64,000 bases of DNA from Catajapyx aquilonaris (GCA_000934665.2 KZ537993.1:124001-188000); one strand, 5' to 3'. Shown: positions 1-64,000, counted from the first letter of the stretch. The notes: generated by a model from the letters alone, not told the origin. Program-made: numbers and translations.

Positions 1-1642
1 GGTTGCTGCTGCTGAGGCTGGACGGGAGATGGGGTACGGTGGTCGTAGTACACCCTCGGGTACAGCTGAGCAGTGCTGGATGGGGATGACGACTTGGGCT
101 GCTGCTGCTGCTGCATATGATGCGGCAGAGGAGACCTGGAGGGCTGCTGACCACCGTACGGCCAACATGGAGGAGACGAGGTAGACGGACGTTGCTGCTG
201 CTGCGGCGGCGATTGTTGAGGAATGTAGTAGTCATTGTTGCACACCACCACCCCTCCCCGTGACGAAGGGTAGGATGCCTGGCCGGAGTATGCCACTACA
301 GAGCTAGGCTGGGAGATCATTGAGGAGGTTGAGGACGACGAGGAGGAGGAGGAAGAGTGGGGGTAGTCCTCTCCGCCTCGCATGATGATGTTGTGGAGGA
401 TATCTGTCCGCTTGAGTTGCTCGGCGGTCATCTTGGGTCCCTCCATCAGACTCTTGGCAAGCGTGGAGTGGGTGCTGCTGAGCGGAGCCCCGGAGGAGGA
501 GGGAAGGGGTGCCAGGAGTGCCGCAGAGAGCACCGACATTGGTGGTCCCACCGGAGGTGAGGCCGAAGAAGTGGACGGGGAGCTGCTGCCCACCGAGGAA
601 GTGGAGGACGGGGACATGGCCGAGGGCTGGTGGGGATAGTGCTGCTGGTGCTGGTAGGCCAGGTGGGACAACATGGCTGGGGAGGACTGGTGCTGGGTGA
701 CGGGGCAGTACCCGCTGCTGGCACTCTCTGGCTCCGGGGTGCCCTTCCGCAGAGCCCGGAACTTCTTATGCGGCTTGTATGCCTCGTCCATCAGGAGGTT
801 GGTGTCGTACAGCGGAGGCGCCTGCAACGCCCGCTTCAGCACCGGCATGTCCTCGATGCTCTCGCTCCCTTTCTCTTCGTCCTCTTCTTTCACCTTATCC
901 TCCACCGAGGACCTGGGGCTGGAACACACCGACGTCGGCGCACTGGAACTGAGCTTGTCCGCCTTCTCCGGTCCCGACTCGATCCCGGAGTCGGATGGCG
1001 AGTCCAACTTCCTCAGTTTCAGTGGGCACTTGGGCGAATCGCCCGCACTAGAGCACTCGTCCCCAGAGGTGGATCCGCCTTCCGAGTGGGAATTGTCTCT
1101 CCGCCTCTTGTTACTGTTTGGCGCCAGGGCCGCGGCCAACACGCCCATCGCGGCTACACCAGCCGCGGTTCGGACGTCGGTCAGGGTGGCCACTTCGCCC
1201 GAACACACAGATTCACTACTGGACACCGATCCCAGCGGCGATTTCACACCCTCGTACATGGTCTGGTAGGCCTCCTCCTTCACCTCGGACCACACCGGAC
1301 TCTTGCTGTCGTCCCAGGAACCTTTACTGCTCTCCTCCCAGATGCTGCTGGCACTGCTGTTGCTCCCACCCATCGCCTGCCGGTACAACTGGCTGTTAGG
1401 GCTCAGCTGCTGCAGGTGCTGTTGCTGTTGTTGCTGCTGTTGTTGCTGCTCCGTCATCTTAAAGGCCAGCAGCTTCTCAGAGTGCAACGTGTTAAGTGTC
1501 CGAAGATCCGGAATCTTCTTGATCAGCTCCTGGTATACGGTGGGATTATCCGGGTGGGTCTGGGCCAAGGCGGTTTGCAAGGCACCTTTCAGCTTGCTCT
1601 GCATCTTTTCGATCAGCTCCGTGTTACGCAGACCAGGCCGAT
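1..1642 (-). CDS. E75: E75 last large coding exon: end of the LBD plus long Q/S-rich C-terminal (F) region, open past the window start
   Basis: Acceptor tttacag|AT at 1643/1642. Translates DRPGLRNTELIEKM...IPDLRTLNTLHSEKLLAFKMTEQQQ...KSPLGSVSSSESVCSGE...RKLDSPSDSGIESG...IEDMPVLKRALQAPPLYDTNLLMDEAYKPHKKFRA...LSSTHSTLAKSLMEGPKMTAEQLKRTDILHNIIM. No stop was seen before position 1. Confidence 0.95.
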
Positions 1643-1726
1643 CTGTAAAGACAAACCAGGAATCGCACCGTCATACACCTGCTAATGCTCGCCATTTAAA
1701 TCCCCAACAACCAGCCCTCTCCTTAC

Positions 1727-1901
1727 CTGAAGATATGACGACAACGGCGCAAAAAAGCCCGATTTGAGCATCTGTTAGCCGCAGAGCGTTGAGCCTGTCG
1801 GCAAAGTCGAACATGGAGTCCAAGAGGAAGCGGGCGTTGCAGCTGTTGTGCACGGCCTCCCTCCGCACCACCTGCCCATTCAGACACAGCATGCTGTTGG
1901 T
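1727..1901 (-). CDS. E75: E75 LBD exon
   Basis: acag|ACC...TCA G|gtaagg; 175 nt; TNSMLCLNGQVVRREAVHNSCNARFLLDSMFDFADRLNALRLTDAQIGLFCAVVVISS. Confidence 0.95.
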
Positions 1902-2166
1902 CTGTAAACACGGGAAGGAAGGAAGAAGTGGTACCGTTAAAAAGGTGCCGGGCTTCGAACCTATTTGAAACTACGGCCTCGTTTCTAGGAGAAGAGAGGG
2001 CGGATAATAACCCACCCAGGGCGGGGATTTTTGGGAGCAAGCCTTGGTGTGTGCCTGCTGGTTTGCGGCCCATTTCGGGTCGGGGGCATTCCTAACGGTA
2101 CACCTAGGCAGGTGTGAGGCCTTGATCCCCTGAAGGTCGAATCAAAAGTTGCCAATTTCCTCTTAC

Positions 2167-2385
2167 CTGCGAGTCAAACATGCAGGCCAGTCGCACCAGC
2201 AGCACCTCGAAGACACCGGCCTTCAGCAAGGTGACCTGGTCATCCTGGGCCAGCACAGAGAAACCCGGGATGCGTTTGGCGAATTCGACCACCCCTCGGA
2301 TGGCCGGGGAGAATCGCTCGGAGAAGTCCTGCAGCAATTGCTGCTGTCCGGTCAAAGGTTGTGGGTTGGGGTTGAGTGGGCAAGC
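2167..2385 (-). CDS. E75: E75 LBD exon, containing the ACPLN heme-ligand cysteine motif
   Basis: tcag|GCT...CAG|gtaaga; 219 nt; ACPLNPNPQPLTGQQQLLQDFSERFSPAIRGVVEFAKRIPGF...LLKAGVFEVLLVRLACMFDSQ. Confidence 0.96.
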
Positions 2386-3857
2386 CTGAGAAAAGACATA
2401 CAAAAACGCAAGTTCAGCAGTGTCCGGATGCTTACACAACTGACGCCTACACACACTTGGCCGCACCGAGTCCAAAATAGACCCGTAAATAGCTTTGCTT
2501 ACTAGATTCAAGGTTTCGGCAGGGTTGTGGGTGGTGGGGGTGCTGCAATCGATCTATGTTGCGAGGTAAAAAGCACCCAATCAATATGGAATGACCTCCC
2601 GGTTCGGACGTGGGTGGGATAGGTGTGGAGTATTATTTTCTACGACCTTGGATACCAGATACGCCGTTACACTTTTGTCAAAATTTAAACATCCCCCAGA
2701 AGTGCAAAAAAAAAAAAACGGGCAATGACCTTACGACCATCGATTTCACATATTGGGAAGCGGCATCATCGCACGACCTCGCTCCATTTCCAAATTTTTA
2801 CCGAACTCTGTACTACCGGCCAAACAATTTTCAGACCATTAATAACACCAAAAATTTACATTCGCACAAAGGCAACATGGACCCCCTTTATTTCTCACGC
2901 TGGATCGGAAGTGGGTGGACCAACCTCCCACCCGAAAAAAATAATGTAAAAAAGTGCATGGCCTGCAAAGCGACCCCAATGGCTTTTTCAGACCGGGTGT
3001 TGTATGGGGAAGGCTGAGGGAGGATTTACGGCACAACGACGTTGGGCGACGCGACGCCTTTTTCCAAGGCTGGCAGCTGCTGCCCCTCCCCAGCCCCCCT
3101 GCCACCTCTTTGTGTTTTTGGAACACGGCCCAGGTGCAACACGGGGCGGATGACCTTCGAGGGGGCCTGAACGTCACCCCTGGGTTTTTGCGACTGATCT
3201 TATTAGGTTCACGACCCGATTAACCAGCCCCACATTTACACGTGCCGGGCCTCCCCTCTCTTTGCAAATGTCTCATCCTCCAGAAGTAGAAAGGGACGGC
3301 GGGGGTGATCAAGGTTGCCAATCAGGAAGAAACCTTCGACTAACCCTGAGAAGACCTTGCCGGGGCGAAAACGGCCAGTGGAAAAAAGTAAAAACGGATC
3401 GCGCGCATCATTTTCCTGTTGTCAGCACATTCTGGGGGTGTCCTAACATTATAAGGGTCGACCTCGTCCTTGTATTGTCCGGCAACAGATTAAACGAGCC
3501 TTGGCCACTTCCGCCTTGGTCACATTGTTGCGGGGTCGTGTGTACGAGATGCTTCCGGTGTGACCTATCTGGGTCGATCCAATTCCTCGGCAAGGATTGG
3601 TGTCAAGGGTCTCTCACACACTTAATTTTTGGGCCGACCAAAAATTTCGGGGGGTCCATATTTGTCGACCTCACTTTCACCTCCTCCTTTCGACGTCCTT
3701 GCCTATATTTCGGCACTAGGCCCCACCGGTCATCCCTCACTTTCTCTTGGCCTCGCCAAAGAGGGAAAGTGACGAGAAAAAGCGCGCGCGCTCCAAGACT
3801 GCCCTATTTCCTGTCCCACTAAAAAACCCACGTATACACAAAACGGTGTCAACTCAC

Positions 3858-4099
3858 CAAAGTTGTGGGGCACACGGACAATCCGGGCTGCTCACGTGCC
3901 CGGACAATCATGGGCTCCACCTTATCCCGTGTGAAGTCGCAGGTGTCCAGATGTGCCCGGATCACCGTTGCTGACAACTTGTGCTCATCCTCCAGTTCGG
4001 TAGCCAGCGCCTTCTCCTGAGACTTGGCGTTGGACGACTGCTGCATGGCGGCCAGTATCTTGGCCTTCTCTCGTTTGGGCACGCGGCCGAAGCGAACCG
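3858..4099 (-). CDS. E75: E75 CTE/hinge exon
   Basis: acag|CG...TTG|gtgagt; 242 nt; (A)VRFGRVPKREKAKILAAMQQSS...RAHLDTCDFTRDKV...CPTTL. Confidence 0.96.
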
Positions 4100-4201
4100 C
4101 TGTAAAAATTTTAATAGAAAAATCCAATGATAAAAATGCACATGTTACCGGCGCACTGATTTAAACAGACACACAAAAAAAAAATTCGGGGTGACACGTA
4201 C

Positions 4202-4277
4202 GTGCATTATGATACCGGTATGTACAATCCCCTTTCAATATCCCCTTCAGTATCGGAAGATCGTCCGTGTCACTCAT
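4202..4277 (-). CDS. E75: E75D-like alternative first coding exon (isoform lacking the DBD)
   Basis: ATG at 4277; MSDTDDLPILKGILKGDCTYRYHNA plus phase-1 donor C|gtacgt. Joins exon 4099 to give ...YHNAPVRFGRVP, matching the LPILKGILKG...YHNAPVRFGRVP N-terminus of insect E75D. Confidence 0.88.
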
Positions 4278-5856
4278 TGTCACTATCACTGCCACTGTGA
4301 ACCCGCGGAATCACCAACACTTCATTCCAACAAAAGCGCGGTCAACACACTGACACGATCTCCAGGCCGTGCTCCCAACGTCCTAGCATGACGCGTAGCT
4401 GAGAGAGATTGGCGCGAGTGGAGGCCTCGCACGCGCGCCTCAGCTTTGCCCTCCCTCCCTCTCCCTCTCTCCCGCTGCACCGCCTCCTTTCCCCCCCCCC
4501 NCCCCCCCCCCCCCCCCTTCGCCACTACGCCCATCCCTTTGCCCTTGAACTTGGACTGGGGCGGAGAGAGAGAGGGAGTCGACGGGCGGTGAGGGGAAGT
4601 TAGCGCGGGGGAACCTCGACCTACTTCCCCCCGACGAGTGACCTTCAATCGGACCTCCGATGCTGCGCGCGGGGCCGCACAGCCCCGCTCGAGGCATATA
4701 CAGGGCGGGAACGGCTCACGCGCCTCTGTATTGTGACTGCCGGTCAACGGTAACCCCGGAAAAATTGCGTCACTGGCCCGGATCAATGGCGTCACAATCC
4801 GGAAATTTCGTCGCCTCCCCGTACAAATGACGTTACTGGTCCGTACAAGTGACGTCACCGGCCTGCACTACTGACGTCATATTCCCGGATCCTCACCTGT
4901 GCGTCGGATCCAACGGGCGTCATCCGGAACTGAGGCGCCCCAGGCGTCCTCTGATTCGCACATAACCATGGTCACTGCACTATCACAGGGTTAAACCACA
5001 AGTGTCGGAAGGGGTGTCAAATTTCCGGCATCCTTCCGCCATTTCTAGAGATTCGCGAACACAACCTCTCCCAACGGAGTCTGGCGGGGTTTTGCGGGAC
5101 CATGTCCTAGGTTTGGGCCCGGGGGAGGAGGAGGAGGAGTCCAGGAAGCGTGACCTGGCCCCATGCACTAGGCCACTGCCCGTGACGTCACAGGCGTGAA
5201 CTGACCTCGTTTTATCCCCAGCGCCCCTAGTGGCGCCAGACCGGAGGGGGTTCATCGGTACAAAGTTGGGGCTGTCCGGAACAGCAAAAAGTGAAACGTC
5301 CTTCGGGGTGCTAAAGATACCTGTGAATCAGCCTTTGCTGACTTTAAGGCCGTAATCAAGGATGAGCCCGTATTTCCGGCTCCATGGCCACCAGTCGTCC
5401 CCACCCACACGGACAGTAGGAGAGGCAGAGCTCTCAGAAAACGCGACAAAGCCCAAAAAGGGGGGCTGGAGCTATGAATGGTGGCTAGAGCGGATATCGA
5501 TCTGTGCAACCCTCGTGTCCCACCCTCCCCCCAGCCAGGCGCCATTCATTCACAAAGCGCCTGGTCGTGGGCAACCCCGGCGTGCAAACGCGTCTGAATG
5601 GTTATCTACATGCCAGGATACACTTCCGGGCAGTATTTCGGGCCCGGGTTTTGGCTAATCCCCGCCTATCGGGTGAGTCAGATTAAAAGCCCCCGTGCCC
5701 TAAATACTGAAGGGGACGATAAGGGTTCCCAGAAGCGCCCGGTTTTTCCCCCGAGCGGGGGTCAACGGCCCCGGCAGAGATAACGGAATTTACAGCACTC
5801 GTCACGCTACGTACACTCCCCGCGACTTTTTTGGCAATGTCCATTGGTACACTCAC

Positions 5857-6001
5857 CATCTCGGCTCATTCCGACAGCGATGCACTTCTTGAGGCGGCAG
5901 TACTGGCACCGGTTCCGGTTGATCCTGAGGATGGAGCACTGCTGGTTCTTGGTACACGGCCGGTACTGTATCTTCTGCTGGATGCTCCGGCGGAAGAACC
6001 C
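5857..6001 (-). CDS. E75: E75 second zinc-finger exon
   Basis: ttgcag|GGG...GAT G|gtgagt; 145 nt; [48 protein letters not shown]. Confidence 0.97.
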
Positions 6002-6022
6002 CTGCAAGTCAGATCCGCACAT
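6002..6022 (-). CDS. E75: Possible E75B-like N-terminus, contiguous with the second zinc-finger exon (one-finger isoform)
   Basis: In-frame ATG gives [13 protein letters not shown], with an in-frame stop further upstream. The acceptor at 6002 has almost no polypyrimidine tract. Confidence 0.45.

Positions 6023-9187: not shown

Positions 9188-9328
<141 letters not shown>

Positions 9329-21759: not shown

Positions 21760-21821
<62 letters not shown>
21760..21821. repeat. (AAT)n microsatellite
   Basis: About 20 perfect AAT units. Confidence 0.95.
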
Positions 21822-30067: not shown

Positions 30068-30173
30068 CTGCTAACACACGTCCTAGCAGCTGCTCGTCAC
30101 TGTCCTGCACAGGCACCGCTTCAGGTGAAGGCGACGTCTCCACAGACGCCGGTTTGTAGTCCTTAACTGTCAT
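30068..30173 (-). CDS. E75: E75 alternative first coding exon ('LLGRVLA' type)
   Basis: ATG at 30173; MTVKDYKPASVETSPSPEAVPVQDSDEQLLGRVLA plus G|gtagat (phase 1), in frame with EFDGTTV. Confidence 0.7.

Positions 30174-40027: not shown

Positions 40028-40090
<63 letters not shown>
40028..40090. repeat. (ATT)21 microsatellite
   Basis: Perfect ATT tandem run. Confidence 0.95.
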
Positions 40091-41825
40091 GCGCTGCAGT
40101 TGATGTACAGTAGTAGCTATAGCCCTGTACAGTCTAACAGGCTTTTATTGACGGCGCGCAGCCTGTAACTCAGGGTCTGCAGCCGACCCTCCTGTTTCAG
40201 CTAGTGACCTTGACCCTGTAACCCTCCACCCCCCAACTCCCCGCACCATCCAACCCACTCCCTCCTCCCCGTCGCCCTATAGAACGAGCAGAAACCTGCT
40301 GCTCACCCTCAGCTTCTTACTCCCGATCGATGCTTTCCATAGACGTAGTACTAATGGTAACCATGTACTACAATTAGCGCCCTAAAACGGCCACTAATGC
40401 GCCAATATTCAAACGTTAAACAAATGCCAACCACTTAATTACCGACCCACATTTTGTCTCATTTTCAAGCTTAACACACTGTGCGTCAATATCCACCTTA
40501 GCATTGCATAACAAGCTGCATCACCCTTTATGCAAATTCAGTCTTCAGTGGAGCCAATGGAATGAATGGGAATCGCAGGGTAGCCTGAGGTCATGCCTCA
40601 GCCTGCAATGCAGGCAACCCTGCCAGACAAGAGAGGCACTTGGGTTGCCTGCTACCCAGGATGAACCTTTCCAAGGCTATGTTGCATTATAGTCAATCGG
40701 AGGATGACATCCGGATGGACTAGCGTGCATTCTAGTGCTATTACCGGGCCTGGCAGAGGGTATTGGCGTGGGTGGCCGTACCATCGCCTGCTTACAAATG
40801 ATCCCGATTTGGCCACTTTTTTAAGTAGTTCTTCTAGGGGTTATTAAATGCCAGGGAGAGAAGGATCATGCCCTTCAACTGAGCCTTTTGGGTGTCGTTT
40901 TTCAGTCTGCTGAATTAACCCGATTAATGACGCACCACGCTTTCCCTATTCACAAGCCCTTGTAATTAGCTTGTATGGAACTCGAGCTTCTAATAGCAAA
41001 GGTCGGATCCGGTAGTTGACATCTGCTTGAATTGGCTGAGAAATTAGCAGACAAATTGTGCACAAAATGTCACGCGCTACACTGTATGCTTCGGATATAA
41101 CTATGTAAATTGTATACCGCTGGTTGGTTTTTCACCTTACGGAATGGAATATGTTCCAGGCTATTATTGAACTTGCTATGCATTAAACAACGGTATTAAC
41201 CTTGATTGTGGCGTGCGCATGGAAGCGATTCAGGGTCACTTCCATTGCCTTTGTGTTTAGCCCTGACTCGAATCCAACAAAATTTCGGGGTATCCCATCA
41301 TCCAATTCTGGGAACATAGCAGCGCAGCCGCCCCTTCCGGGAATCAGATTCCTCTGCGGGCTCCAATCCAAAATCTGACCCATATTTTAAGGATTGTAAA
41401 CTACCGGTCGGATAGGACGGAAAGGTTGGTAGGCCTGGCAGGATTGAAGGGCTGACCTTCCCGGAGGGCGCAGAAGAACCGGAATGCTCGACCTTCAAGG
41501 ACAGGGCGGGCGGTTGAAAGGGAAAGCTTTTTTGGGGGTTGTCGGGGTGGCTGCGGACCACCTTTTTTTGTGATAGGGGGCAACGTTGCCCTCCGGAGTT
41601 GGTCAGCCTCAACCGCCATTATTTGCACGGGAGAATCATGGAAGCGGCAAAAAAAATTTACTTTGGCATTAGATCCGCACGAATCGCTTGACCAAGGTCA
41701 AGGTCACTGACTAGTAATCCCGGAAATGAGCAACAATGCGCTCTTATTCCGTTGCTTAACAACATATAACACAGGACCTTCTAACCCTCCAGTCCGTTCG
41801 TGTCCTATCATTTATTCTCCTGATC

Positions 41826-42815
41826 ATGAGCTGTTCAAAAATCAACTTGGATGAGCTAGTAGCCCAACACTACGCCGTCACCCCCTTACGGGTGGCCTTC
41901 CAGGACTACTACAGCAAGGACCTTAACTACGAGCCCGAGGTCACCCTGGAAGTCCCTCACAACACCACTCATGACAAGTTGAGGGCCATTGTGGCTGAGA
42001 AGCTCTGCGTAGACCTCTTTCACCTCCAGTTCTACCGATGCAAAAGAGGCAAGTGCGAACCCGAGCTCAACCCAGTGCCCTTCAAATACCCAGGCAGCGT
42101 CGAAGACCTGGTAGGCTTCTTGAACCCGGAGGCGACCAAGTACATGTTCTACAACATTGTTCCGTTGCGGTTCGACGAGCAGCACGGAGACTACAAGTTC
42201 CGCTGTACCTGGGTGAGCATGGACCTGAAGAATTCCAGGAACTTGGTCTTGAGGCTGCCACAGCATGCCACTGTTAACGACGTCCTATGCCTGGTGCGTA
42301 AGGAGATGTGCTTGCCAAAATGCAAGGTCCTCAGGCTTCTGGAGGTGGTCGGCGACAACATTTACACCGAACGACCCGAACACATCACCTTGAGTTTGTT
42401 GGAAACCATGTGCCTGAGGACATACCGCGTCGAGGAGGTGCCCGAGAGCCAGCAGGAGCTAGCAGATAATGAGTTTCTCATACCTGTCGGGCACTTTTTC
42501 ATGAATGAGAAATGTGAAATGGTTACATTCGGAACGCCATTTTTCCTGATGGTTAGAGTCGGGGAGACAGTGTCTATGCTTGCAGAGAAGTTGCTGACAC
42601 TGCTTGCGGAGATGGAGGTCAACCCTGGCAATTACACGTTCCATCTGGTCCAGCGGAGAAAGGTGAGAATGATTCTGAAGGCCAATTTCCAAGTGCGGCC
42701 ATATGATTTCAACTGGTGCAACAGCACCGACGGACACAAAGTACCGATGCGGACTTGGTTGGGCTTGCAGCATGTGAGGCTGAGCAAATTGTACAAACCA
42801 GGAGCAGCACAGTAA
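41826..42815 (+). CDS. USP7 C-terminal ubiquitin-like domain (about UBL3-5)-only protein, copy 1; intronless, nested antisense in the E75 intron
   Basis: 329-aa ORF with LQFYR, FRCTW, LRLLEV, YRVEEVP, IPVGHF, FGTPF and WLGLQH, colinear with USP7 LQFFK/FKCIW/LRLLEI/FRIEEIP/VTVAHF/FGIPF/WLGLDH. AATAAA at 42835-42840. Confidence 0.88.
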   Translation: MSCSKINLDELVAQHYAVTPLRVAFQDYYSKDLNYEPEVTLEVPHNTTHDKLRAIVAEKLCVDLFHLQFYRCKRGKCEPELNPVPFKYPGSVEDLVGFLNPEATKYMFYNIVPLRFDEQHGDYKFRCTWVSMDLKNSRNLVLRLPQHATVNDVLCLVRKEMCLPKCKVLRLLEVVGDNIYTERPEHITLSLLETMCLRTYRVEEVPESQQELADNEFLIPVGHFFMNEKCEMVTFGTPFFLMVRVGETVSMLAEKLLTLLAEMEVNPGNYTFHLVQRRKVRMILKANFQVRPYDFNWCNSTDGHKVPMRTWLGLQHVRLSKLYKPGAAQ

Positions 42816-43027
42816 ATGTGACAATGCTGTGAACAATAAATTATTAACAGCCTCTATCGTCTATAATGTAGCGTGTATATAGTACTCATCTACCTCATTA
42901 TCTTGTCATTCATCAGCAGTTAGGTATTACTAGGGTGACAACAACTTGAGGTTGCATTGTTTTCCAATACGGAATTTCAACAAGCAATCACCAAGACTAC
43001 GTAGTGTTCGCACATTATTATTCGAAA

Positions 43028-43549
43028 ATGTCGGGGTACAGGTTGGACTTGAACAAGTTTTGCAGCTACTGCCGTGCTGAAGTCACCTTCTGCGACGTGG
43101 AAATGCGAGACAACCCAGGCTGGACGCTGAACCTGAGCCAGTGCATGAGCTACTCTCAGATGTGCGAAGTGGTGGGAGCCCACATCAAAGTCCACCCTTG
43201 TCTCTTAAGGTTCTACAGGACCACCAGACACAATCTGCGAGGTCTTCCCATTCCTTCCGACTTCAAAGGAATCCTTCGCGACATGGCCAAACCGGGTTGG
43301 ATGAAGCTGTTCTACCAGCGACTTTCAATTCCTGTCACAAAAGAGGAGCAGCAATACAAGTGCTTCTGGATCGACCCCGAGTATGACACCGAAGTGGCCA
43401 TGAATCTGTATCCGGCCAAGGGCGGAGCAGTGCCCGACCTTCTGGCTGAAGCGCGACTGCAGATACAGAGAAGCGGCAAGCTCAGGCTGCTCGAGATCAT
43501 CAACAACAAGATAGTCAAAATTTTCGCTGACGACACCCCTCTGGAAAAG
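43028..43549 (+). CDS. USP7 UBL-domain-only protein, copy 2, exon 1
   Basis: ATG at 43028; VTFCD...LNLSQCMSYSQM...LLRFYR...KLFYQRLSIP...YKCFW...LYPAKGGAVPDLL...SGKLRLLEIINNKI; donor AAG|gtaatc. Confidence 0.85.
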
Positions 43550-43801
43550 GTAATCTGCTTTTGTGTACCTATTTGTATACTCCCCAAATAATTTGACTTC
43601 TTAACACTTGAAATATCTCCCAATACTTTTGGGTCAGTAACTTTAAAAAAATTCTCAGAAAATTTACCCTAAATCAGTAAAAATGGCCAGTTGAGGAAAA
43701 ACGTCAGTCAAAATAAGTGATGCTATTTCAAGAGTGATATAAGGCCACTCAAAATAATTTACGGCCCATGACATGGATCAACATGTCCCATATATACGCA
43801 G

Positions 43802-44170
43802 ATCCGCCGTGGAATTTCGACATCCCTTCGGGTCGAAGAAGTCCCGGCGGACGAGGCCACTTTAACCCAAGACGAGGTGTTGGTCCCTGTAGCGCACTTT
43901 GACGCAGTCACCTTTTGCACCTTCGACACTCCATTCCTGGTGAAGGTCAAACACGGTGACGACTACGACAAGGTGCAACGTCTGATCCGTACCAAGCTCG
44001 GGATCAGTCCTGAGCAATTCGGAGAATACCGGTTGGCCGCAGTAGTCGCCGGACTGCCTATGTACCTGACCCAGCGATACAAAGTGGATGCCCAGCTACT
44101 GACCAACAACAGCTTCTGGTTCGGGCTGGACCACCCCATGCGAGGTCAGAAACGCCGCCATGACCACTGA
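43802..44170 (+). CDS. USP7 UBL-domain-only protein, copy 2, exon 2 (296 aa in total)
   Basis: Acceptor acgcag|ATC in phase 0; IRRGISTSLRVEEVPADE...LVPVAHF...FDTPFLVKV...WFGLDHPMRGQKRRHDH*. ATTAAA at 44190-44195. Confidence 0.85.
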   Translation: MRRGISTSLRVEEVPADEATLTQDEVLVPVAHFDAVTFCTFDTPFLVKVKHGDDYDKVQRLIRTKLGISPEQFGEYRLAAVVAGLPMYLTQRYKVDAQLLTNNSFWFGLDHPMRGQKRRHDH

Positions 44171-47100
44171 CACCTTTCGTTTTCTGGTTATTAAAAACTT
44201 TGAGCATACAGGTTTTCGCATATGGGCGTGCCCTGGGAGGAAATGGATACAAATTGGGAGTGGAGGGAGGGGGGAAGGTTTTTTTAAAAAATGAGAGGGG
44301 GTAGATTTCGATGGTGGGGAAGGTCGATGTCCCCTGCCTCCTTCCGTTGCCCTGGCAACCCCCCTAGCCTTAAAATCTGCCAGTTCAACGTCTCCCCCAG
44401 CATGCACTTTCGCTTTTTTTTCGCATGTCTTTTGTAGCTAGCACGAGGCTGCGGCAACATTGCCCTGCCCAAGGCCCGTCCTTGACTTCCTCATCCCAAG
44501 TCAATGGCCGAGTGTCTTGTTGCCACATGTGCCGTTGACCCCCCTCGATATACCTACACACGCACTCACGCACTGGGCCTTGAAATAAAAATAAAATGGG
44601 TCTAAATTATTTCCTTCCCTACCCCCTCCTTGAAAGCTATATCTACATAAGGGTGCTGAACTTGCACCTGATTGGCTCACCTGCGTTTACATGCACGATA
44701 AAAATTTCCTCATTAATATCTGCACTGGATTTTGAAACTAGTTTATCGCCAGGTAGATAGAACGGATGTAGATATGAGGGGGCAATATCTGGAATTAGGA
44801 GGCTCTCTGCAAGGTGCAAGTAGCGTCATATAAGTTTGGTGCTTAATTGGAGCTGGTGGCCAGTTTGGGAGTGAGTGGTGGTGGTGGGGGCTGACACTAT
44901 GACGCTGATAGTCTCTCCCCCCTGCCATTCTATTCCAATAGCAGCCGCAGCGGCATGTATGAGGGCCCCAGATTACCTACAGACCTTGACCTAAAGCATA
45001 CCGCGCCTGTGCGGGTTTACAAATCCGACGCGTTCATATCACGTAATAACCAGGACAAAAGATTCGACCAAACTACCAACAATATGAGCAGCCATATGTC
45101 ACCTTTGCAATATATTGTCTTGGACAAAGTAATGACCCGGACATTGAACCGTCACCTCCCACGCGGTCTGAGTTGCCATAACGCCACTGACGTTCCTTTA
45201 AAAAAAAATCAACATCCCAATTTGCTATTAGTGTAGCCGAGGTGACCTTTGATAGATTAGGTATATCTGCAGGTGCCCTCCAGAGAGATACAACTGGGTC
45301 GTTGGCTTTCATTCAGGGTGACATTTGCGATGAAATTGCACCCAGTATGTACGTTAATAAATTTGCAATTGTAGTAGTTAGGAGAGGGGAAATGCAATAC
45401 CCATACATGGAGGAACTCAAGCCAGACCACTTGAGGGTAAGTGACCTTCACGGGGGTGAAAAACTGGTCTGGGATGTTGGTGGGTTACGCCATCGAGCCG
45501 GTTTCTTCCTCGTAGACGTCATGGTGCGAGTAGGCCTCCAGCTAAATAAGCAATATTTTTTTTTATTACACTCTTCGGCTTACGTCGACATAGAAACCAC
45601 GCGGTTTTCTTTTTCGTGTTTCGCACTTACGCAACCTACTCTCAATATTTTTGCTGAAAACTGGGTCAAGTTCAAGGCTCCTGAGTGCTGGCCAATGATG
45701 GCTTTCTTGGGCACCCAACCAAACACTCTCGCCGCGGGATTGGTCAGGGTTATATAAACCGGCTTGGAAGGCCCACTCTTTTTGTTGCCGAAGAAAACCG
45801 CGTCGTTTATTTTCCCCCTTCTAATATTTAATTCACCCTGGTAGTTAGATCACACGTGTGAGTCAATATTGCCACGATGTAGTTATGTAAGTCTCCTTCA
45901 ACAAAACTGACGTAAGTCACGTCCCTGTAAGAGTTGGCCCAATACAGACCCAAGTGCAGTTGTTTCCTACTTGCTATAATTGTTGATTCGGCTATGCCAA
46001 GGGCTGGTTATGCAGTCAACGCAGGTGAAGGTCAATGTCAGATACTTCGGGTTATTTAACTCACAATTTGCGTAATTTTATTACGCTACTCCATTACGAT
46101 ACATCCTGCTTCCATGGGAGACCAAAATACGTACTTTTCTACCCAAAACCAGCAAGTTTGACATATCAATAATTCAACAGGAAGAGATCCGAATCATTCA
46201 TGACATCAGGGGATTCCTCTCTTTCTTTTTTTATCGCCCTCTTCTTTATTTTCGGAAACCATTTAAGCATCCCCTCCTTCTTTCGAGACTTAAAAAATTC
46301 GGTAAAAAACGGTGCGAAGTTTCCACCACCGACATCCCTCGAGACGGGGAAGGGTAGGGGGAAGAAAAGGAAGCAAGATGGAGGCTATTTCCAGAAGGGG
46401 AAGAATTAGGGGAAGGGGGAAAAAAAGAACGCGTGCTGCCAGGCGACATATCCAGATGGGACAGGAAAACATGGCGGAAGTGAAGGAAACCACTAAAAGT
46501 CTGAAGAAGAAAAAAAAATCTGACCTATATATACGACCGTATGACGTACTTGTACCGATACATATTCTTACAGGGTCGACATCCGCGGATACCTTTTGTC
46601 TCAAACGTGCGTAAACAACCCCCGAATAAATTGGTGGCATAACTCCGGATGTCCTTGCAGTTGTTTGTTACGCCGTGCTGGGATCCGGCTGGTCACAGCA
46701 AATTCCGGCAATTAAATAAGCGGGTATATACTATAGTGTCAAGATCGATCGTTGGCAAAGACGACGACGAAAAAAAAAAAAAGAGGGTAAAAGACATAGG
46801 AGTCTGCGTTTTCCTCCCTCATTTCTCCCCAACCTCACCTTGAACTTCCCCAAGGTGACTGAGAACGGCTAGAGTTGCATTTAAAACCCGGTCGTAACAT
46901 GAGCCTTGCTTATTTGCATTGACGGAGGCTTCCCAAAACTCGATATGCTGCTTTCATTTCATTCCCAAATAAATTGAATTAGTTGCAAAAATTGGGGTGA
47001 CCTCTGTATGCTATGCCAAATTATTAAGGCACTATTCGCAAAATGCCGTGGCCTAGAACCTAGAATCGCTCTAGCCTTGAACTTCGGAACACAAATTTCG

Positions 47101-48161
47101 ATCGGCCTCGACAGGTGCAAGGGGCTACAGTTGGGATCAAACCCTATATGGTTTCGGTGCGAAATATTTTTATATCCAGATAATCTGCGCATGCGTTAAA
47201 GGTATAGTACATATACAGGGCCATATCGATGCGGGAAATAGTTCGTTGTCCTCTAGAAAGCCACTGCGGAGTTGGCTATGGCAGCCAAGGGCAGGGACGG
47301 ATTAGGAAACCACATGACATGACGAGGCCCTAGTGCCCCACTTATAACCCATTTTTAACCGGTCAATTATGCGGAGGTCAATCAATGACCCCCTCGCACC
47401 ATATATCCTGCCTATGCTCATTTGAATACGCAGCTGCTGAATTAATGCAAGGGTGTGGACAAAGATGGCGGTATAACCTGGGTTTTAAAATATGGGTACA
47501 GTGCGCACGCTTTGCATCGATTCATTGGTAGGGTTCAGCGAACGCACTTTCAGGATCGGAAAAAAAAATTCGCAAAAAGCCTTTCCTGATTTGATATATT
47601 GCACGCGAATTATAACCGCAACCCATTCCGCAACAAGTGAGTCATGTTTGCGGTGTGGTGCTAATTTGGTCAAACACCAACGACCTCTCAAGGTCAGTCC
47701 CTTTAATTCTTAAAACTACCCTATATGTGGGTGGAGGGTGAGGCATATAAACAAAAGTGTTATCACGTCTACAAATAAAACTGCCCCCTATAGTACGAGA
47801 CCCCACCTTTTACCAGCAGATACGAGGGTCGAAAATTAGCTGAAATACGCACAGACATGCGTAAATGTGGTTCCCACAACCCTCGTTTTAGTCATATTGA
47901 TCATTCAAATCTGGGTAGGGGGGGTTGGGCCGACCCTCCCATCAAACCCGAAATCTGATTACGCACGCCATTCCCCCAACCCTCTCTAATCCTCCACATA
48001 TAACCCCCTAAAAACTAACAGTCTGGCAACAATGCCAGGGATCCTCCCCCGCCTTTAGGATATTGATTGTTTTACGCCACAATTCCGGAAACTAGGGGAC
48101 GAGGAAGATTCCCCCATCCCCTACTGTCCCCTATCTTATAATAAGCTATAAGAGATCATGC

Positions 48162-48174
48162 GGGTCACTGACCT
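48162..48174. promoter_or_regulatory. Consensus ecdysone response element (IR1)
   Basis: GGGTCA-C-TGACCT matches RGKTCANTGAMCY exactly; about 1.2 kb downstream of the E75C-like exon. Confidence 0.65.
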
Positions 48175-49402
48175 GCAATCCGCAATGGTGTCCATTTTAG
48201 ATATGAAGGGCAGGGAGAAAAACATGTTAACCGCCACTTTTTCTTCCGAGTATATGCAAATATGTACATTGTACAGCCAAAAAAACAGGGCCCCCCAGGA
48301 AACTTCCAAATTAGCCGGTTTTATTAATAATTCGGGCGTAACTAAATTATAAGCCGAGTTCAAAAGGCGGCCATCTTGCTCCATGGCTGGCTAATTGTAA
48401 ATGGCCGAGTTTGGCAGTGGCGTTGGGCCTGCGTTCGACCCCTGCGAAAAGCACACTATAGTTCATTGGCCTCTGTGGCTTTTGGGGAACGACGGGGGGA
48501 ATGACGTGAGGCTAGAAGAATATAGTAGCGCCGGCGCACACCTTTGCTACACTCCCATAAAAAGCATTAAATAGTGTGATAGTTAAATGGGTGATTAGTG
48601 ACCACCCAGAGCAGCCATCTTTGCGCCGGTTAGGAGAATTTCCCCCCTTCGTCAATCTATAAATACACGTGCCTTTACTGGAATGGGGAGGCTGCTTGGA
48701 GGGCGTTCACTGTGGCACGAAATCTGTCTGGCAACTGTGATGGCCCAGACTTTGGTTCAATGTCGAGGACTGTGTGCTTAAGCCAAAAGGGCTAATGTTT
48801 TTCCCCATGTCATCATCGAAGTATTGATGTGTATCATGTCAACGACTTGAATCGACCCAATTATGACGTCATTGTTAAGGGGGTGTCTGATGACACAGGT
48901 TTTCTCTGGAAATATGAAACGACTAAAAATGAGGGAGGGCCAACCACCCTCACTAGTCACGCGAATATTCGAGCAACCAGGTGAATGCCCTCCTTCTGTA
49001 GGAGCCATGCGCATAGAATTTTTTGGGGGGTGTCAATATACCTAGTTGAAAGCAATTTTGAGGGTTACTTCCTGATCCGGTTTTAGGGGACATATTTGTA
49101 CAGGTCCAAATGTTTTTCAAGGGGGGTCCACATTTTAGGGAGTTGAGAGTAGGAGGGGGTGTTAGGATCCCACCGCGCAACTCGAGGTCTTCGATTCTAG
49201 GACCACCCTCCCCCTCACCATAACTTCACCCCCTCACCAGGAGCAATGGCCAGCTCCAAGAGCATCGAACCAAGGCCGGTTCTTAACCCAAACCCCCAAA
49301 TCGTACCTTTTTAGGCTACTGCGCATTTCCCCTCCAAAAAAAAGCCGGGTCCAACAATGGCCCATGTGGCTTTTACCCTAATAATTTCAGGAAGTATCTT
49401 AC

Positions 49403-49520
49403 CTAAATCTGGTATTGAGCTAGATGGTTCCTCATGGTCCTTGTCCTTATCCAGCTTAGACTTTGGAGGTGGAGGTGGAGGTGGCCGCATGACCATCGAA
49501 GTTGTAGATGACACCGCCAT
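49403..49520 (-). CDS. E75: E75C-like distal first coding exon
   Basis: ATG at 49520 after an in-frame stop; MAVSSTTSMVMRPPPPPPPKSKLDKDKDHEEPSSSIPDL plus G|gtaaga (phase 1). MRPPPPP...EEPSSSIPDL is the known E75C-type motif. Confidence 0.9.
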
Positions 49521-51215
49521 CGCACTATCAGGTCAAGGTCAAGTCACTATCAGATGACCACTCTCACTCACACGCACCCGGCATAACACGAATTTGGAAA
49601 CCCCGCCAGTCAAGCCAGCCAACAGGAGACGAGTCCCCGTGCCCAGCCGTACAGTAGGCTACAGTAGAGTATGACTGTGAGAGAGGAGTGTGGCGGAGCT
49701 CGTGGGGGCCGCGGCTGGAAAATAGCACTTGGCCTTGTCCTTGAACGAGGCTCGTGAACTCGGTCGCTTATCGATTCGCGCCGACGTGCTGGCATCTACC
49801 GGACGGTGGACCAACCACAGAAAAGGTACGATGGAGGGGAGGACCCAACCGGACCCCTCAACAATACATGTATGATCGATCATACCCAAGCCCCCCTTGT
49901 GGTTGGATGTGTACCTTTACGTAACTTGTAGGGGACTCATTTTTAGGGGGGAGGCAACAGGGGTTATGTAAGGTCTAAGGTGGTTTAGGGGTCAAGGGTG
50001 AGTTTGCATATATAGGGAATTTTTGCACTATATTGGAAATGGGAGTTATGTAAAGGTAATTTAGGAAAAATGGAGACCTTGCCTGCCCACCAGATTGAAG
50101 GTCTGGACCAAGGACAGCATCCGGGGTCATCCAAGGGTCAATGTGAACGGTGCGTATTTAGGCAGGTGTTGCGCAGATCCTGGGTCAAAGTCTTCGGGTG
50201 TAATGAGGTCAGCGGCAGATAGCTGCTACAATGTCACCTACACATTTAGTGATAATGCGTGTCATTAACACAGTTTTAATTCGTGTTTTTTTTTTGCAAA
50301 TTGGTGGTGGGGAAATATTTGGTTAATATTGGGATGTGATTGTGTGATAGAACTGGTCCTACACAGCGTTAGAGATAGATCGGATGCTGGGAAGGTCAAG
50401 GACGGGATAGATCGAAGTTGGAGGGTAGGGGGCGAGGAATATAGAAGGGGTGTAGGATTGGGTAGGAGGGGCTTCTGTCCTACCTGGACCCCTGTGGGTG
50501 GTAGTGGTAGTAGTATACTTGTGACGTCAGTAGTGCGACTCCCATTAATTACTTATTTGATCATATTTTTATAAGGCTTTTCTTCCGCAAACTAACTCGT
50601 AAATATTTATTCCTATCTCATTACATGGTATTGCACATGTAAGCTTACATCATGTTCCTTCAGGACATACTGTAGGCCTATACAGATTTTTTTAAACGTC
50701 ATCCAAGAGTGCCTGGGGCATACCGGTGAAGCAAACATCACGCGACAGATCGATATATTATTAAAAGTGATGAAAATATTCAGCTCGACAAATAGGAATG
50801 GTGGAAATTTAGAAAATTGGAGGACGGCGTGTCACTTGGAAAATCTATGCAAAGCATCCAAATCGTGAGGTATTGCATAACATTACTAAGGGAGACGGCG
50901 CTGTGCCATGCAGAGACGCTGATGATTTGTGCGACGCAGTAGATTCTGACATTGCTGCTGCTCGGTGACAGGGAAAGGGGTGGGAAAGGGATTCCAGGAA
51001 AAGTTGATTTCCGGGAAGGAAAGTTCAAAAATAGGAGGACAGTTCTTATTATTATTGCTGAGAACTCGCTCGTTATTTTAAATTGGTTTCACTTTTTATT
51101 GAATTACTTGTCGTTTACATTCGTGTTGTACAGGGTGATCCAAAATGCTTGTGTGATTTCAGCTAAGATATTTTCGCAATAAATTGTTTATTATTATGCA
51201 GTTACTTTTGAATAA

Positions 51216-61073: not shown

Positions 61074-61702
61074 TTAGTGGAAGATAGGAGGAGTGCTTTT
61101 GGCTGAGAGTCTTACAGTTTTCAGTCGGATTTTGACATTGCTTTGTGCTGATTTTGAGCCTGTCTTTTTCGAACAGGTAGTATGGTCGGCAGATTTTCTG
61201 AATATAGCTTCGGAGGTGCAGTACAATCGGGTCGCTTCAGCAAAGTCACCTTGTTCCTTGTGAAAAATTGCAAAATTCCTCAGAATCTTTGCCACCAACA
61301 CATGCTCATCACCATAAGCCTTTCTGCACATCTCCAAGGAACTCTCATATAAACTCTGAGCATCATACATTTTCCCTTGCCTGGAGTACAGTATAGCCAG
61401 ATTTAACCTCGCTTGCAAAGTTATTGGATGCATGTCTCCAAGGGTTGCTTGGGCTTTCTTCAGTGCAGCTGCCTGTCCTGCCTCAGCCTCCTTCACATGT
61501 GCTGTGGCTTGGACCGCATTAAGTCTCTCAGAGACAAGGGCAGCCAAGCGGGTCTTTCCGTGGGTGCGGTACAAGGTCGACAGGGATTCCAATCCACGAC
61601 AGAATATCGGGTGTGAAGGAGGGAGATGGTGGGAGTAGATCTGGAGGGACTGCTTCAGAAAAGCCCGGGACAGGCTGCACTTTCCACATTGGTCATGGAG
61701 CT
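61074..61702 (-). CDS. Terminal coding exon of a TPR-repeat protein (kinesin light chain/nephrocystin-3-like TPRs)
   Basis: Acceptor ttctaatttcag|AG at 61703/61702. LGDMHPITLQARLNLAILYSRQGKMYDAQSLYESSLEM and YGDEHVLVAKILRNFAIFHKEQGDFAEATRLY are KLC-type TPR repeats. Candidate AATAAA on the minus strand at 60271-60266. Upstream exons were not identified. Confidence 0.78.
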
Positions 61703-62414
61703 CTGAAATTAGAAATGGATGGATGAATGAGAAAGTAATGAATAATTGAGTTCCTCTGCAAGCAATAATGGGCAGTCCATAAAATCCATGGACGGGAAAA
61801 GGGGGGTCCTCAATTGTACAATACGGGGAAGGGGATTCACAATAATCGTATATGTATACAGCATTTTTGTAGGCGGATTTATGATTTAGAACCAATTAAC
61901 CAGTGACAAGGTTGAAGAGGGGCAGTGCCAGGCTGACTGTACATTTAAATAAAGGGGGGGGGGGNGGGGGGGTACACGAATTGTATACAAGTGTCTACCG
62001 GGGTGGGGTGGGGGTGAAAATAGTGAAAAAAATGTCTACATAATTTATGAACAGTCTCTAAATACTACATCACTAAAAAGATTCAAACAATAATTTTGCA
62101 TCGAAGTGAAATTCAATATTTTCTCTCTCGATTTCTGATCAAATGCAGCATCCATCCTACCCTTTCTTCCAGTGACGCATGTCACAAACATTCCAAATAA
62201 TTATGACCTGTTACTGGTGAGCAAAAAGAGTGAAAAATATGCTGCAGCACAACATACAATTTTTGGTTCATATTCAGATGCTCAAATTAGGAGGGAATGG
62301 CTTAAGTCTGGCACATTTTAATCAGAATGACTGGGTCTAAGAAAAATAGAATTTCAAAATAATGTGACACTATTGTGAACTAATATAATTATGATGACCA
62401 GGAAGGCTTATTAA

Positions 62415-63477: not shown

Positions 63478-64000
<523 letters not shown>

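Follow-up and report, generated by a model that had tools for sequence, protein, structure and literature searches.

In USP7/HAUSP, the partners GMPS, DNMT1, ICP0 and UHRF1 are reported to dock on Ubl1-3, with the key pocket D762/D764 placed in Ubl2, and in the same reports no binding of the ICP0 peptide was seen with an Ubl345 construct (PMC6335408, PMC4457826). Ubl45 deprived of its C-terminal tail associates with the catalytic domain weakly in vitro, with a KD of about 420 uM. In Drosophila, a review presents GMPS-USP7 as a corepressor that the ecdysone receptor recruits (PMC5131776), in agreement with the link between USP7-GMP synthetase and EcR that a preliminary description of the present locus had stated. 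A different line of work concerns genes nested within other genes: the internal nested genes of Drosophila are described as small, with few short introns, fast evolving, on the opposite strand in 71% of cases, and often young testis-specific duplicates (PMC5174743, Assis 2016).

Both lines of work meet in a stretch of 64,000 nucleotides from Catajapyx aquilonaris, hereafter the window, where a pair of genes with intact frames, coding-type composition and the domain content and fold of the USP7 C-terminal region lies on the strand opposite to the ecdysone-response gene E75. We consider it reasonably probable that these are two real coding genes, lineage-restricted and non-catalytic partial duplicates of USP7, each encoding Ubl3-Ubl4-Ubl5 and nested in their host by accident.

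The E75 host locus and the structure of the nested genes

The exons of the host gene were inferred from homology, splice signals and phase:

49403-49520, minus strand: E75A-type first coding exon (MAVSSTTSMVMRPPPPPPPKSKLDKDKDHEEPSSSIPDL), found by homology, with a GT donor at 49402 in phase 1
30069-30173, minus strand: alternative E75 first coding exon (MTVKDYKP...GRVLA), found by homology, with a GT donor in phase 1
9215-9303, minus strand: E75 exon that encodes the first zinc finger of the DNA-binding domain, its acceptor reading ...ttttgcag followed by AG
3-6019, minus strand: remaining E75 exons, located by tblastn with Thermobia domestica E75
about 5855-6019, minus strand: second zinc finger (same tblastn search)
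about 3858-4100, minus strand: hinge (same tblastn search)
about 2137-2385, minus strand: ligand-binding domain (same tblastn search)
3-1670, minus strand: last exon, continuing beyond the window edge

The most distal of these exons received 11 matches from N-terminal E75 sequences of, among others, stick insect, ants and bees (best E 2.4e-05) and the alternative one 12 matches, the best being Blattella germanica E75 (E 1.1e-05), while the acceptor at 9303 is phase-compatible with both phase-1 exons upstream. The gene pair falls wholly inside the first intron of the E75A-type isoform, which spans 40 kb, and the antisense nesting originally proposed is thus borne out by 5' exons with homology, GT donors and matching phase. 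On the plus strand the following features were recognized:

41692-41706, plus strand: overlapping Ftz-f1/NR5A consensus matches (CCAAGGTCA, TCAAGGTCA), as motif matches only
41764-41769 and 41789-41794, plus strand: putative core promoter of gene 1, TATA-like ATATAA and Inr-like CCAGTC, at consensus level
41826-42815, plus strand: gene 1 coding sequence, 329 aa, intronless
42835-42840, plus strand: AATAAA poly(A) signal of gene 1, read from the DNA, 20 nt past the stop codon
42876-42911, plus strand: putative core promoter of gene 2, TATATA at 42876 and Inr-like TCATTC at 42906, at consensus level
43028-43549, plus strand: gene 2 exon 1, 174 codons that cover Ubl3 and the greater part of Ubl4
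43550-43801, plus strand: gene 2 intron, 252 nt, GTAATC...CGCAG, phase 0, GC 0.34
43802-44170, plus strand: gene 2 exon 2, 122 codons plus stop, with the end of Ubl4, Ubl5 and the basic stub GQKRRHDH
44190-44195, plus strand: ATTAAA poly(A) signal of gene 2, read from the DNA

With its 329 aa, gene 1 is the longest ATG ORF at 30-60 kb, where 200 shuffles gave a mean of 129 and a maximum of 230. Exon 1 of gene 2 lies in a 187-aa ORF starting at 43028, the intron holds an in-frame stop 14 codons in, and the spliced product, obtained from the DNA read and a script, has 296 aa and one terminal stop. Both leaders are free of ATG between the putative core promoter and the start codon, which is preceded by an in-frame stop 22 (gene 1) or 26 (gene 2) codons upstream. 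ORFs, splicing and Pfam matches therefore confirm the earlier view of two intact, mutually divergent UBL-only genes, in which ATG, stop and poly(A) signal are separate for each. Among eukaryotic USP7 ORF fragments, some start 4-8 residues before YRxEEIP, near the position of the gene 2 intron. A single inverted pair occurs at 38-48 kb; it forms a local hairpin of 23 nt and lies upstream of the genes, at 40.6 kb.

Domain content of the two proteins

Both proteins consist of the end of USP7_ICP0_bdg (PF12436) and the entire USP7_C2 (PF14533), equivalent to human USP7 ~771-1083/1088, i.e., Ubl3-Ubl4-Ubl5. The gathering cut-off of USP7_C2 (29.4 bits) was passed by both genes with essentially full coverage of the model: in gene 1 with 80.4 bits (E 1.9e-22, profile 2-200 of 204), and in gene 2 with 44.7 bits for exon 1 (E 1.7e-11, profile 1-89) and 65.7 bits for exon 2 (E 6.1e-18, profile 93-202), ranges that make the spliced product collinear with the family model. 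The USP7_ICP0_bdg cut-off (27 bits) was also passed, by gene 1 with 28.9 bits (E 9.3e-07, profile 171-240 of 241) and by gene 2 exon 1 with 44.8 bits (E 1.3e-11, profile 167-240 of 241), coverage being confined to the last 70-74 of the 241 profile positions (Ubl3); the ICP0/GMPS-binding part is absent. Residues 33-318 of gene 1 align with human USP7 803-1083 (E 8.5e-26), and in gene 2 residues 14-173 of exon 1 and 6-118 of exon 2 align with human 791-960 (E 5.4e-25) and 967-1088 (E 1.5e-13), respectively. For gene 1, AlphaFold gave a model (pLDDT 88.0, pTM 0.75) with three beta-grasp units; its Ubl45 unit can be laid over 5JTV at 3.4 A across 201 columns, and all of its top 10 Foldseek matches are USP7 structures. 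The profile matches and the top structure matches agree with the USP7 C-terminal UBL hits that had been anticipated. All eight invariant or nearly invariant columns of a 50-row alignment carry the family-wide residue in gene 1.

Ubl1 and Ubl2 are absent from both proteins, a point that the preliminary description had not emphasised, the human USP7 alignments beginning at 791-803 and the gene 1 model holding three Ubl units. The sequences end 11-13 residues past WLGLQH / WFGLDH, neither C-terminus shows similarity to the conserved EKxIKIxN activating tail (human 1083-1102), and a search of the window's plus strand found no tail-like mini-exon. Neither the TRAF/MATH domain nor the UCH catalytic domain with its Cys-His-Asp triad was matched in either protein or in a tblastn of 25 full-length USP7s against the window, in which 60 of the 63 HSPs fell inside the pair and the other three had E values of at least 0.1. 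Upstream exons supplying a catalytic domain were likewise sought, and UCH, MATH or USP7 matches were found in none of the 148 ORFs scanned out of 156 (at least 45 codons, plus strand, 14-41.85 kb). The absence of TRAF, catalytic domain and activation peptide, stated in the preliminary description, accordingly stands in both the proteins and the window. Since the protease domain, TRAF, Ubl1-2 and the activating tail are all missing, these proteins can neither deubiquitinate nor activate USP7 by the canonical route.

Coding constraint, divergence and origin

The two proteins share 27% identity (75/274), with a local score of 176 against 33.6 +/- 4.4 in 200 shuffles, and are 29-37% identical to the best canonical USP7; Ubl3 of gene 1 reaches 18% (20/113) with sea-urchin USP7. 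In 13 canonical sequences 59 columns are conserved, of which gene 1 keeps 29 and gene 2 keeps 35. At the observed divergence, none of 1000 neutral simulations by point substitution remained stop-free for either gene. GC at the three codon positions is 0.53/0.32/0.71 in gene 1 and 0.57/0.37/0.69 in gene 2, to be compared with a GC3 of 0.76 in the E75 last exon and with GC values of 0.34 in the gene 2 intron, 0.36 in the spacer and 0.47 in the flanks. Open frames, GC3 contrast and simulations together indicate selected coding genes. Codon usage correlates with that of E75 (rho 0.53 for gene 1 and 0.59 for gene 2), but the frame+1 control of gene 2 does so too (rho 0.41), which makes this measure weak for gene 2. 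Between the paralogues, NG86 gave a dN of 0.97 and a dS of 1.66, at which dN/dS is saturated.

No orthologue or close relative was found among 1.84 billion cluster representatives. Both genes fall inside the metazoan-type USP7 clade (SH-aLRT 99); without constraint, the tree separates them and gives both long branches (2.49 and 1.5, median 0.68), and the AU test does not reject a tree constrained to one clade (p 0.511, lnL 0.08 better). They stand in tandem on the same strand, and both proteins start alike, with MS... some 10 residues ahead of the first strand of Ubl3. These data would allow the two genes to share one origin. Regarding retrogene signs, gene 1 is intronless and gene 2 has an intron, while a poly(A) tract and flanking direct repeats were not found; the USP7 ORF fragments that start near the position of the gene 2 intron hint that this intron may have been inherited from the parent USP7.

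Alternative explanations

The two ORFs might instead belong to another transcription unit, as terminal exons, alternative 3' cassettes or a bicistronic transcript. About 190 nt separate the poly(A) signal of gene 1 from the ATG of gene 2, a spacing that would also accommodate other transcript structures; a pyrimidine-rich stretch followed by AG, noticed by eye, directly precedes both ATGs, and the same domain boundary starts both proteins, as it would in exons placed after one parental splice site. We nonetheless regard this as unlikely in view of the in-frame stops upstream of the ATGs, the separate poly(A) signals, ATG-free leaders and putative TATA-like/Inr-like pairs at classical spacing, the lack of a recognisable coding exon in the 148 of 156 upstream plus-strand ORFs scanned, and the lack of any USP7 piece in the rest of the window by tblastn. 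That the genes are untranscribed or recently dead pseudogene relics of a USP7 duplication would agree with the missing orthologues, the very long branches, the low identity of gene 1 Ubl3 and the loss of the functional tail; it becomes quite improbable when 329 and 296 codons have stayed open at 27-37% identity, a result that no neutral simulation reproduced, GC3 is 0.69-0.71 against 0.34-0.47 in the adjoining non-coding DNA, the splice sites of gene 2 are intact and in phase, and the fold of the gene 1 model is confidently predicted, although a very recent death would still be compatible with these features. Delivery by a transposable element or virus with a captured USP7 fragment, for which the compact genes, one of them intronless, and the intronic location could be invoked, is scarcely credible: direct repeats and flanking terminal inverted repeats were not found at 38-48 kb, for 17 of the 18 neighbouring ORFs Pfam gave nothing above cut-off and none of the 18 matched a transposase or reverse transcriptase, codon usage is host-like, both genes belong to the metazoan-type clade, and a viral contig collection gave no match in a search that detects close relatives only.

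The preliminary description had also suggested that the proteins may be a lineage-specific family of USP7 decoys or adaptors, possibly modulating USP7-dependent repression; taken further, this reading has them tune USP7-GMPS-EcR corepression of ecdysone targets, the location in E75 reflecting shared hormonal control. The recruitment of GMPS-USP7 by the Drosophila receptor, as reviewed in PMC5131776, speaks in its favor, together with an abundance of nuclear-receptor motifs: the window holds 13 Ftz-f1-type matches (4.76 +/- 1.94 in shuffles) and 15 EcRE-like palindromes with one mismatch at most (2.13 +/- 1.35 in shuffles), including a perfect one at 48162-48174. The two overlapping Ftz-f1/NR5A matches precede the gene 1 ATG by 120-134 nt, and direct Ftz-f1 targets are reported to carry the motif (consensus YCAAGGYCR) within 500 bp of the start site (PMC7239656); judging from the motif, this pair is a possible promoter-proximal element or E75 enhancer. 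However, E75, as a primary ecdysone-response gene, could alone explain the enrichment, no EcRE-like site occurs within 1.2 kb of either gene, and nesting in long introns is presented as common and mostly incidental (PMC5174743). Moreover, the proteins begin at the Ubl2/Ubl3 boundary and therefore lack the D762/D764 pocket; because GMPS, ICP0 and UHRF1 dock in this pocket, the proposed role is weakened, as it is by the failure of Ubl345 to bind the ICP0 peptide in the cited reports (PMC6335408, PMC4457826) and by the low affinity between tail-less Ubl45 and the catalytic domain. We hold this reading to be highly unlikely.

Under the preferred reading of partial USP7 duplicates with incidental nesting, the 3' part of USP7 would have been duplicated once, and a subsequent tandem duplication would have produced the pair. 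Both genes would then have evolved fast, gene 1 faster, under selection for an open frame and a correctly folded Ubl345 protein, and the products may act as non-enzymatic binding modules. Candidate targets are whatever touches Ubl3-5 in USP7, for instance at the second substrate site of the p53/Mdm2 type (residues 801-1050), or else the catalytic domain, the latter being doubtful because the affinity of Ubl45 without the tail is so low. The long E75 intron may simply have offered a safe landing place, and in that case the main consequence of the location would be possible transcriptional interference with E75A. Expression would be narrow, probably germline- or stage-restricted, by analogy with small internal nested duplicates; of the earlier suggestion of ordinary nested, germline-biased duplicates at an incidental location, the fit to the Drosophila nested gene profile (PMC5174743) holds, whereas the germline bias is borrowed from that analogy.

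Comparison with known systems

Like the Drosophila internal nested genes as characterized in PMC5174743, the pair is short, antisense, fast-evolving and duplication-derived, with no or one short intron. It differs in being very divergent, and hence not obviously young; as regards retroposition, gene 2 has an intron, and neither a poly(A) tract nor a target-site duplication was seen. With the catalytically inactive DUB relatives discussed in PMC5381560 it shares the derivation from a DUB and the inability to hydrolyze ubiquitin, but those relatives keep a degenerate protease fold, whereas here the whole protease is gone and accessory Ubl domains alone are left. The closest likeness in domain content is to the USP7/HAUSP constructs Ubl345 (human 776-1102) and Ubl45-deltaC: the pair starts at the equivalent of ~771-776 and comprises Ubl3-Ubl4-Ubl5, as the former does, and is devoid of the activating peptide 1083-1102, as the latter is. 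Gene 2 retains a short basic tail stub, up to the equivalent of human 1088, and gene 1 none. While the constructs are fragments of an enzyme, the two Catajapyx genes are natural separate genes, 29-37% identical to canonical USP7.

Gene models and genomic setting

The pair of USP7-derived genes is a naturally separate module of the last three ubiquitin-like domains of USP7 (Ubl3-Ubl4-Ubl5, hereafter Ubl345), devoid of the C-terminal activating peptide (the tail) and duplicated in tandem. Reading of the DNA and a script reproduced the gene models of the preliminary description to the base. The gene 2 ORF begins 212 nt past that of gene 1, and its unspliced frame meets a stop 14 codons inside the intron.

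Elements of the tandem pair
41826-42815, plus strand: gene 1 ORF, 329 codons from the ATG
42835-42840, plus strand: AATAAA, poly(A) signal after the gene 1 stop
43028-43549, plus strand: gene 2 exon 1, ending ...GAAAAG then GTAATC
43550-43801, plus strand: gene 2 intron, 252 nt, phase 0, ending ...ACGCAG then AT
43802-44170, plus strand: gene 2 exon 2, to the TGA at 44168-44170; spliced product of 296 residues
44190-44195, plus strand: ATTAAA, poly(A) signal after the gene 2 stop

Putative TATA-like and Inr-like elements (consensus-level matches) lie at classical spacing before both genes, with leaders free of ATG. No third copy occurs in the window, the remaining tblastn matches having E of at least 0.38, and no Rfam family was matched across its whole length.

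The surrounding gene is E75; its upstream exons were located with the N-terminal parts of 52 E75 proteins as tblastn queries.

Exons of E75 and the neighboring frame
3-1670, minus strand: last exon
~2137-2385, minus strand: ligand-binding-domain exon
~3858-4100, minus strand: hinge
~5855-6019, minus strand: second zinc finger
9215-9303, minus strand: first zinc finger
30069-30173, minus strand: alternative first exon, Blattella germanica type (12 tblastn matches, best E 1.1e-05)
49403-49520, minus strand: E75A-type first exon, stick insect/ant/bee type (11 tblastn matches at 49404-49538, best E 2.4e-05)
61074-61895, minus strand: open frame of 273 codons upstream of E75, with TPR_12/TPR_10 and a nephrocystin-3-type match (TPR_12 E 1.2e-19), probably the last exon of an adjoining TPR gene

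Each first exon has an ATG, a GT donor and a phase-1 end, and the final G of either, joined to the acceptor of the zinc-finger exon (...ttttgcag then AG), yields a GAG codon. Exon matches and splice phase thus place the pair inside an E75 intron on the opposite strand. Homology and splice logic support the antisense nesting previously claimed, specifically in a predicted intron of about 40 kb belonging to the 49.5-kb isoform and upstream of the 30.2-kb alternative start.

Perfect arrays of trinucleotides also occur twice in the E75 intron, as (ATA)20 at 21761-21821 and (ATT)21 at 40028-40090. An unbroken run of 520 T (63481-64000) extends to the window end and reflects either a giant homopolymer or an artefact of assembly, and single isolated N bases occur at 4501, 12477, 26774 and 61965, the sequence around them being continuous.

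Domain content and fold

Both proteins match the Pfam family USP7_C2 over the whole model and USP7_ICP0_bdg over its last 70-74 positions only, in each case above curated cut-offs. In gene 2, exon 1 matches USP7_C2 positions 1-89 and exon 2 positions 93-202, so that splicing rebuilds a collinear domain. In comparisons with solved structures, gene 1 aligns through its residues 33-318 with residues 803-1083 of human USP7 (full-length chain, E 8.5e-26), and gene 2 with residues 791-960 plus 967-1088. Since published constructs delimit Ubl345 as 776-1102 and Ubl4-Ubl5 (Ubl45) as 886-1102 (PMC4457826), both proteins comprise Ubl3-Ubl4-Ubl5 and start at the Ubl2/Ubl3 boundary.

The fold was predicted for gene 1 alone, with a 50-row alignment as AlphaFold2 input, and the model contains three beta-grasp units (mean pLDDT 88.0, pTM 0.75). 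All ten of its best Foldseek matches in the PDB were USP7 (2YLM, E 1e-25). Its Ubl45 unit superposes on 5JTV over 201 columns at 3.4 A. A different orientation of the domains relative to one another keeps the global TM-score at only about 0.5. The structural part of the preliminary interpretation, a content restricted to the USP7 C-terminal Ubl region, is thereby supported, by Pfam for both proteins and by Foldseek for gene 1.

The lack of TRAF domain, catalytic domain and activation peptide claimed for the pair was borne out as well. Pfam found no TRAF/MATH, USP catalytic or Ubl1-2 match in either protein, nor any relevant match in the 148 upstream plus-strand ORFs scanned (those from 15.2 kb on, out of 156 ORFs in the 14-41.85 kb interval with 45 codons or more). 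When 25 full-length USP7 sequences were used in tblastn, 60 of 63 HSPs fell within the pair and the other three had E of at least 0.1. Both proteins end 11-13 residues past WLGLQH or WFGLDH; gene 2 retains a short basic stub up to the equivalent of human 1088, and gene 1 nothing recognisable of the tail. The conserved EKxIKIxN end is absent from both, and the plus strand of the window contains no tail-like mini-exon.

Coding constraint

Taken as sequences, both genes argue strongly for long-term coding constraint. Their proteins share 27% identity (75/274 aligned positions), with a local score of 176 against 33.6 +/- 4.4 in 200 shuffles, while identity to the best canonical USP7 is 29% for gene 1 and 37% for gene 2. 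In simulations of drift to the observed identities, by point substitutions only, none of 1000 copies of either gene stayed free of stops. GC at the three codon positions is 0.53/0.32/0.71 in gene 1 and 0.57/0.37/0.69 in gene 2 (GC3 0.70 and 0.68 in its two exons; 0.76 in the E75 last exon), and non-coding GC is far below the GC3 of the pair (gene 2 intron 0.34, spacer 0.36, flanks 0.47). CpG observed/expected is 0.64-0.95 in the genes and 0.65-0.83 in the background, ranges too similar to be informative. Relative synonymous codon usage correlates with that of E75 (rho 0.53 for gene 1, 0.59 for gene 2), compared with 0.09 for the +1 frame of gene 1, -0.22 for intron DNA and 0.41 for the +1 frame of gene 2, a value that makes this control weak for gene 2.

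Thirteen canonical sequences share 59 conserved columns, of which gene 1 retains 29 and gene 2 retains 35. Tajima tests show gene 1 evolving faster than gene 2 (61 unique changes vs. 39, p 0.028; 63 vs. 36, p 0.007). Erosion of gene 1 is greatest in Ubl3, which is 18% identical to sea-urchin USP7, compared with 33% for Ubl45. The NG86 dN/dS between the paralogues is 0.97/1.66 and saturated.

Origin and relatives

Gene 1 was searched exhaustively, without a profile, against 1.84 billion cluster representatives. Of the 145 proteins returned at E <= 1e-3, 23 reached E <= 1e-10 and none E <= 1e-30; a sea-urchin USP7 of 1126 residues headed the list, and none of the 145 exceeded about 35% identity over long stretches. 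Several short matches carry the canonical tail at their end, and their clusters, among the members listed, are unnamed or named USP7 and come from contigs of mostly ~1-11 kb; where checkable, the short matches look like pieces of ordinary USP7. A gene 2-like orthologue would be expected in the same search, because genes 1 and 2 match each other at about 70 bits; none of the 145 was nearer to gene 2 than canonical USP7 is.

Word-index protein searches gave no match, either for gene 1 (near lengths) or for gene 2 exon 1 (longer lengths). In the ESM Atlas gene 1 led to generic USP7_C2 clusters only and gene 2 exon 1 to no unnamed cluster; the viral contig collection gave no pattern match, and of 265 pattern matches in metagenome contigs none was confirmed. 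With E75 as query, the best match in the collection searched with gene 1 was the firebrat Thermobia domestica (62% identity over 300 last-exon residues; next best 49-56%), the source organism being apparently not included, so that "lineage-restricted" here means only absent from the sampled taxa. These E75 similarities make an early-branching insect the probable source of the window.

In a 35-row tree, from which six near-identical isoform rows had first been removed, both genes fall inside the metazoan-type clade (SH-aLRT 99), apart from each other and on branches of 2.49 and 1.5 (median 0.68). A tree forcing them together is equally good (lnL 0.08 higher, AU p 0.511), a result that, given the long branches, is permissive and not proof. 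Both proteins begin MS..., about 10 residues ahead of the first Ubl3 strand. This identical N-terminal boundary, the missing tail in both and their arrangement in tandem on one strand favour a single truncation, after which the gene was duplicated in tandem. Gene 1 has no intron, and that of gene 2 lies at about the equivalent of human 961/962. Some eukaryotic USP7 ORF fragments start 4-8 residues ahead of YRxEEIP, which suggests, as a lead only, an intron near this position in the taxa concerned; other fragments continue through it. Neither repeats nor transposon domains were detected around the pair, and the viral contigs searched yielded no relative; a transposable-element or viral origin was rejected, no signal of any kind having emerged.

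Possible function and the ecdysone question

The preliminary description had proposed that the pair might be USP7 decoy or adaptor proteins, possibly modulating USP7-dependent repression. In human USP7, GMPS and DNMT1 are described as using Ubl1-3 as a platform, and Ubl1-3 as leaving activity unaffected; activation of the catalytic domain comes from Ubl45 together with the tail (1083-1102), in trans with an apparent KD of 110 uM. Tail-less Ubl45 is reported to bind that domain at a KD of ~420 uM and not to bind its ubiquitin-loaded form (PMC6335408). ICP0, GMPS and UHRF1 rely on the Ubl2 residues D762/D764, an ICP0 peptide is reported not to be bound by Ubl345, and a second p53/Hdm2 site has been mapped to 801-1050 (PMC4457826). 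Missing Ubl1-2 and the tail, the pair therefore lacks the only well-defined docking pocket of the GMPS type as well as the activating peptide. By the known binding mode a GMPS/EcR decoy role appears unlikely, and competition for the catalytic domain would need an affinity far higher than that of the human fragment. With the Ubl2 pocket gone, the domain content does not support the ecdysone-regulatory link. The most defensible mechanism would be a non-enzymatic Ubl scaffold for partners specific to Ubl3-5.

Hormone-receptor motifs are nevertheless enriched in the window. The Ftz-f1/NR5A consensus YCAAGGYCR occurs 13 times (4.76 +/- 1.94 in shuffles, none of 100 reaching 13), exact TCAAGGTCA six times (0.60 +/- 0.70), and EcRE-like palindromes RGKTCANTGAMCY with at most one mismatch 15 times (2.13 +/- 1.35).

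Hormone-receptor motif matches
11807, 40205, 41698, 47688, 49533, 56923: Ftz-f1/NR5A 9-mers
120-134 nt upstream of gene 1: two Ftz-f1-type matches (YCAAGGTCA)
49533-49541: Ftz-f1-type copy directly upstream of the E75A-type start codon
9580-28908 and 45435-48472: EcRE-like palindromes
48162-48174: sole perfect EcRE-like site, GGGTCACTGACCT, 1.2 kb into the intron past the E75A-type first exon

EcRE richness is expected of a primary ecdysone-response gene such as E75. The Ftz-f1-type sites and the EcRE-rich locus leave a small opening for an ecdysone-regulatory reading. In one such scenario, the pair would be trans-acting, tail-less Ubl345 regulators of USP7 or its substrates, switched on by the competence factor Ftz-f1 at the tandem sites upstream of gene 1 and off by antisense read-through upon firing of the E75A promoter. 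We consider this scenario highly improbable; if true, the ecdysone cascade of an early-branching insect would have a deubiquitinase-modulating step built into its timing. The pair without a moulting-hormone link is a modestly interesting lineage-restricted gene birth.

Comparison with known systems

USP7 is an essential, single-copy and heavily studied hub enzyme, and to our knowledge its C-terminal Ubl domains have so far been studied only within the enzyme or as laboratory fragments. In the literature searched, no published description of stand-alone USP7 Ubl genes was found. Separate Ubl3-5 proteins whose frames selection keeps open would offer a natural experiment on the capabilities of these domains when both protease and activating tail are missing, and on the recruitment of accessory domains from an essential single-copy enzyme into new genes. 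In Drosophila about 10% of genes are nested, 71% of these on the opposite strand, and internal nested genes are described as small, with few short introns, fast-evolving, often testis-specific and typically young duplicates; the pair fits this general description (PMC5174743).
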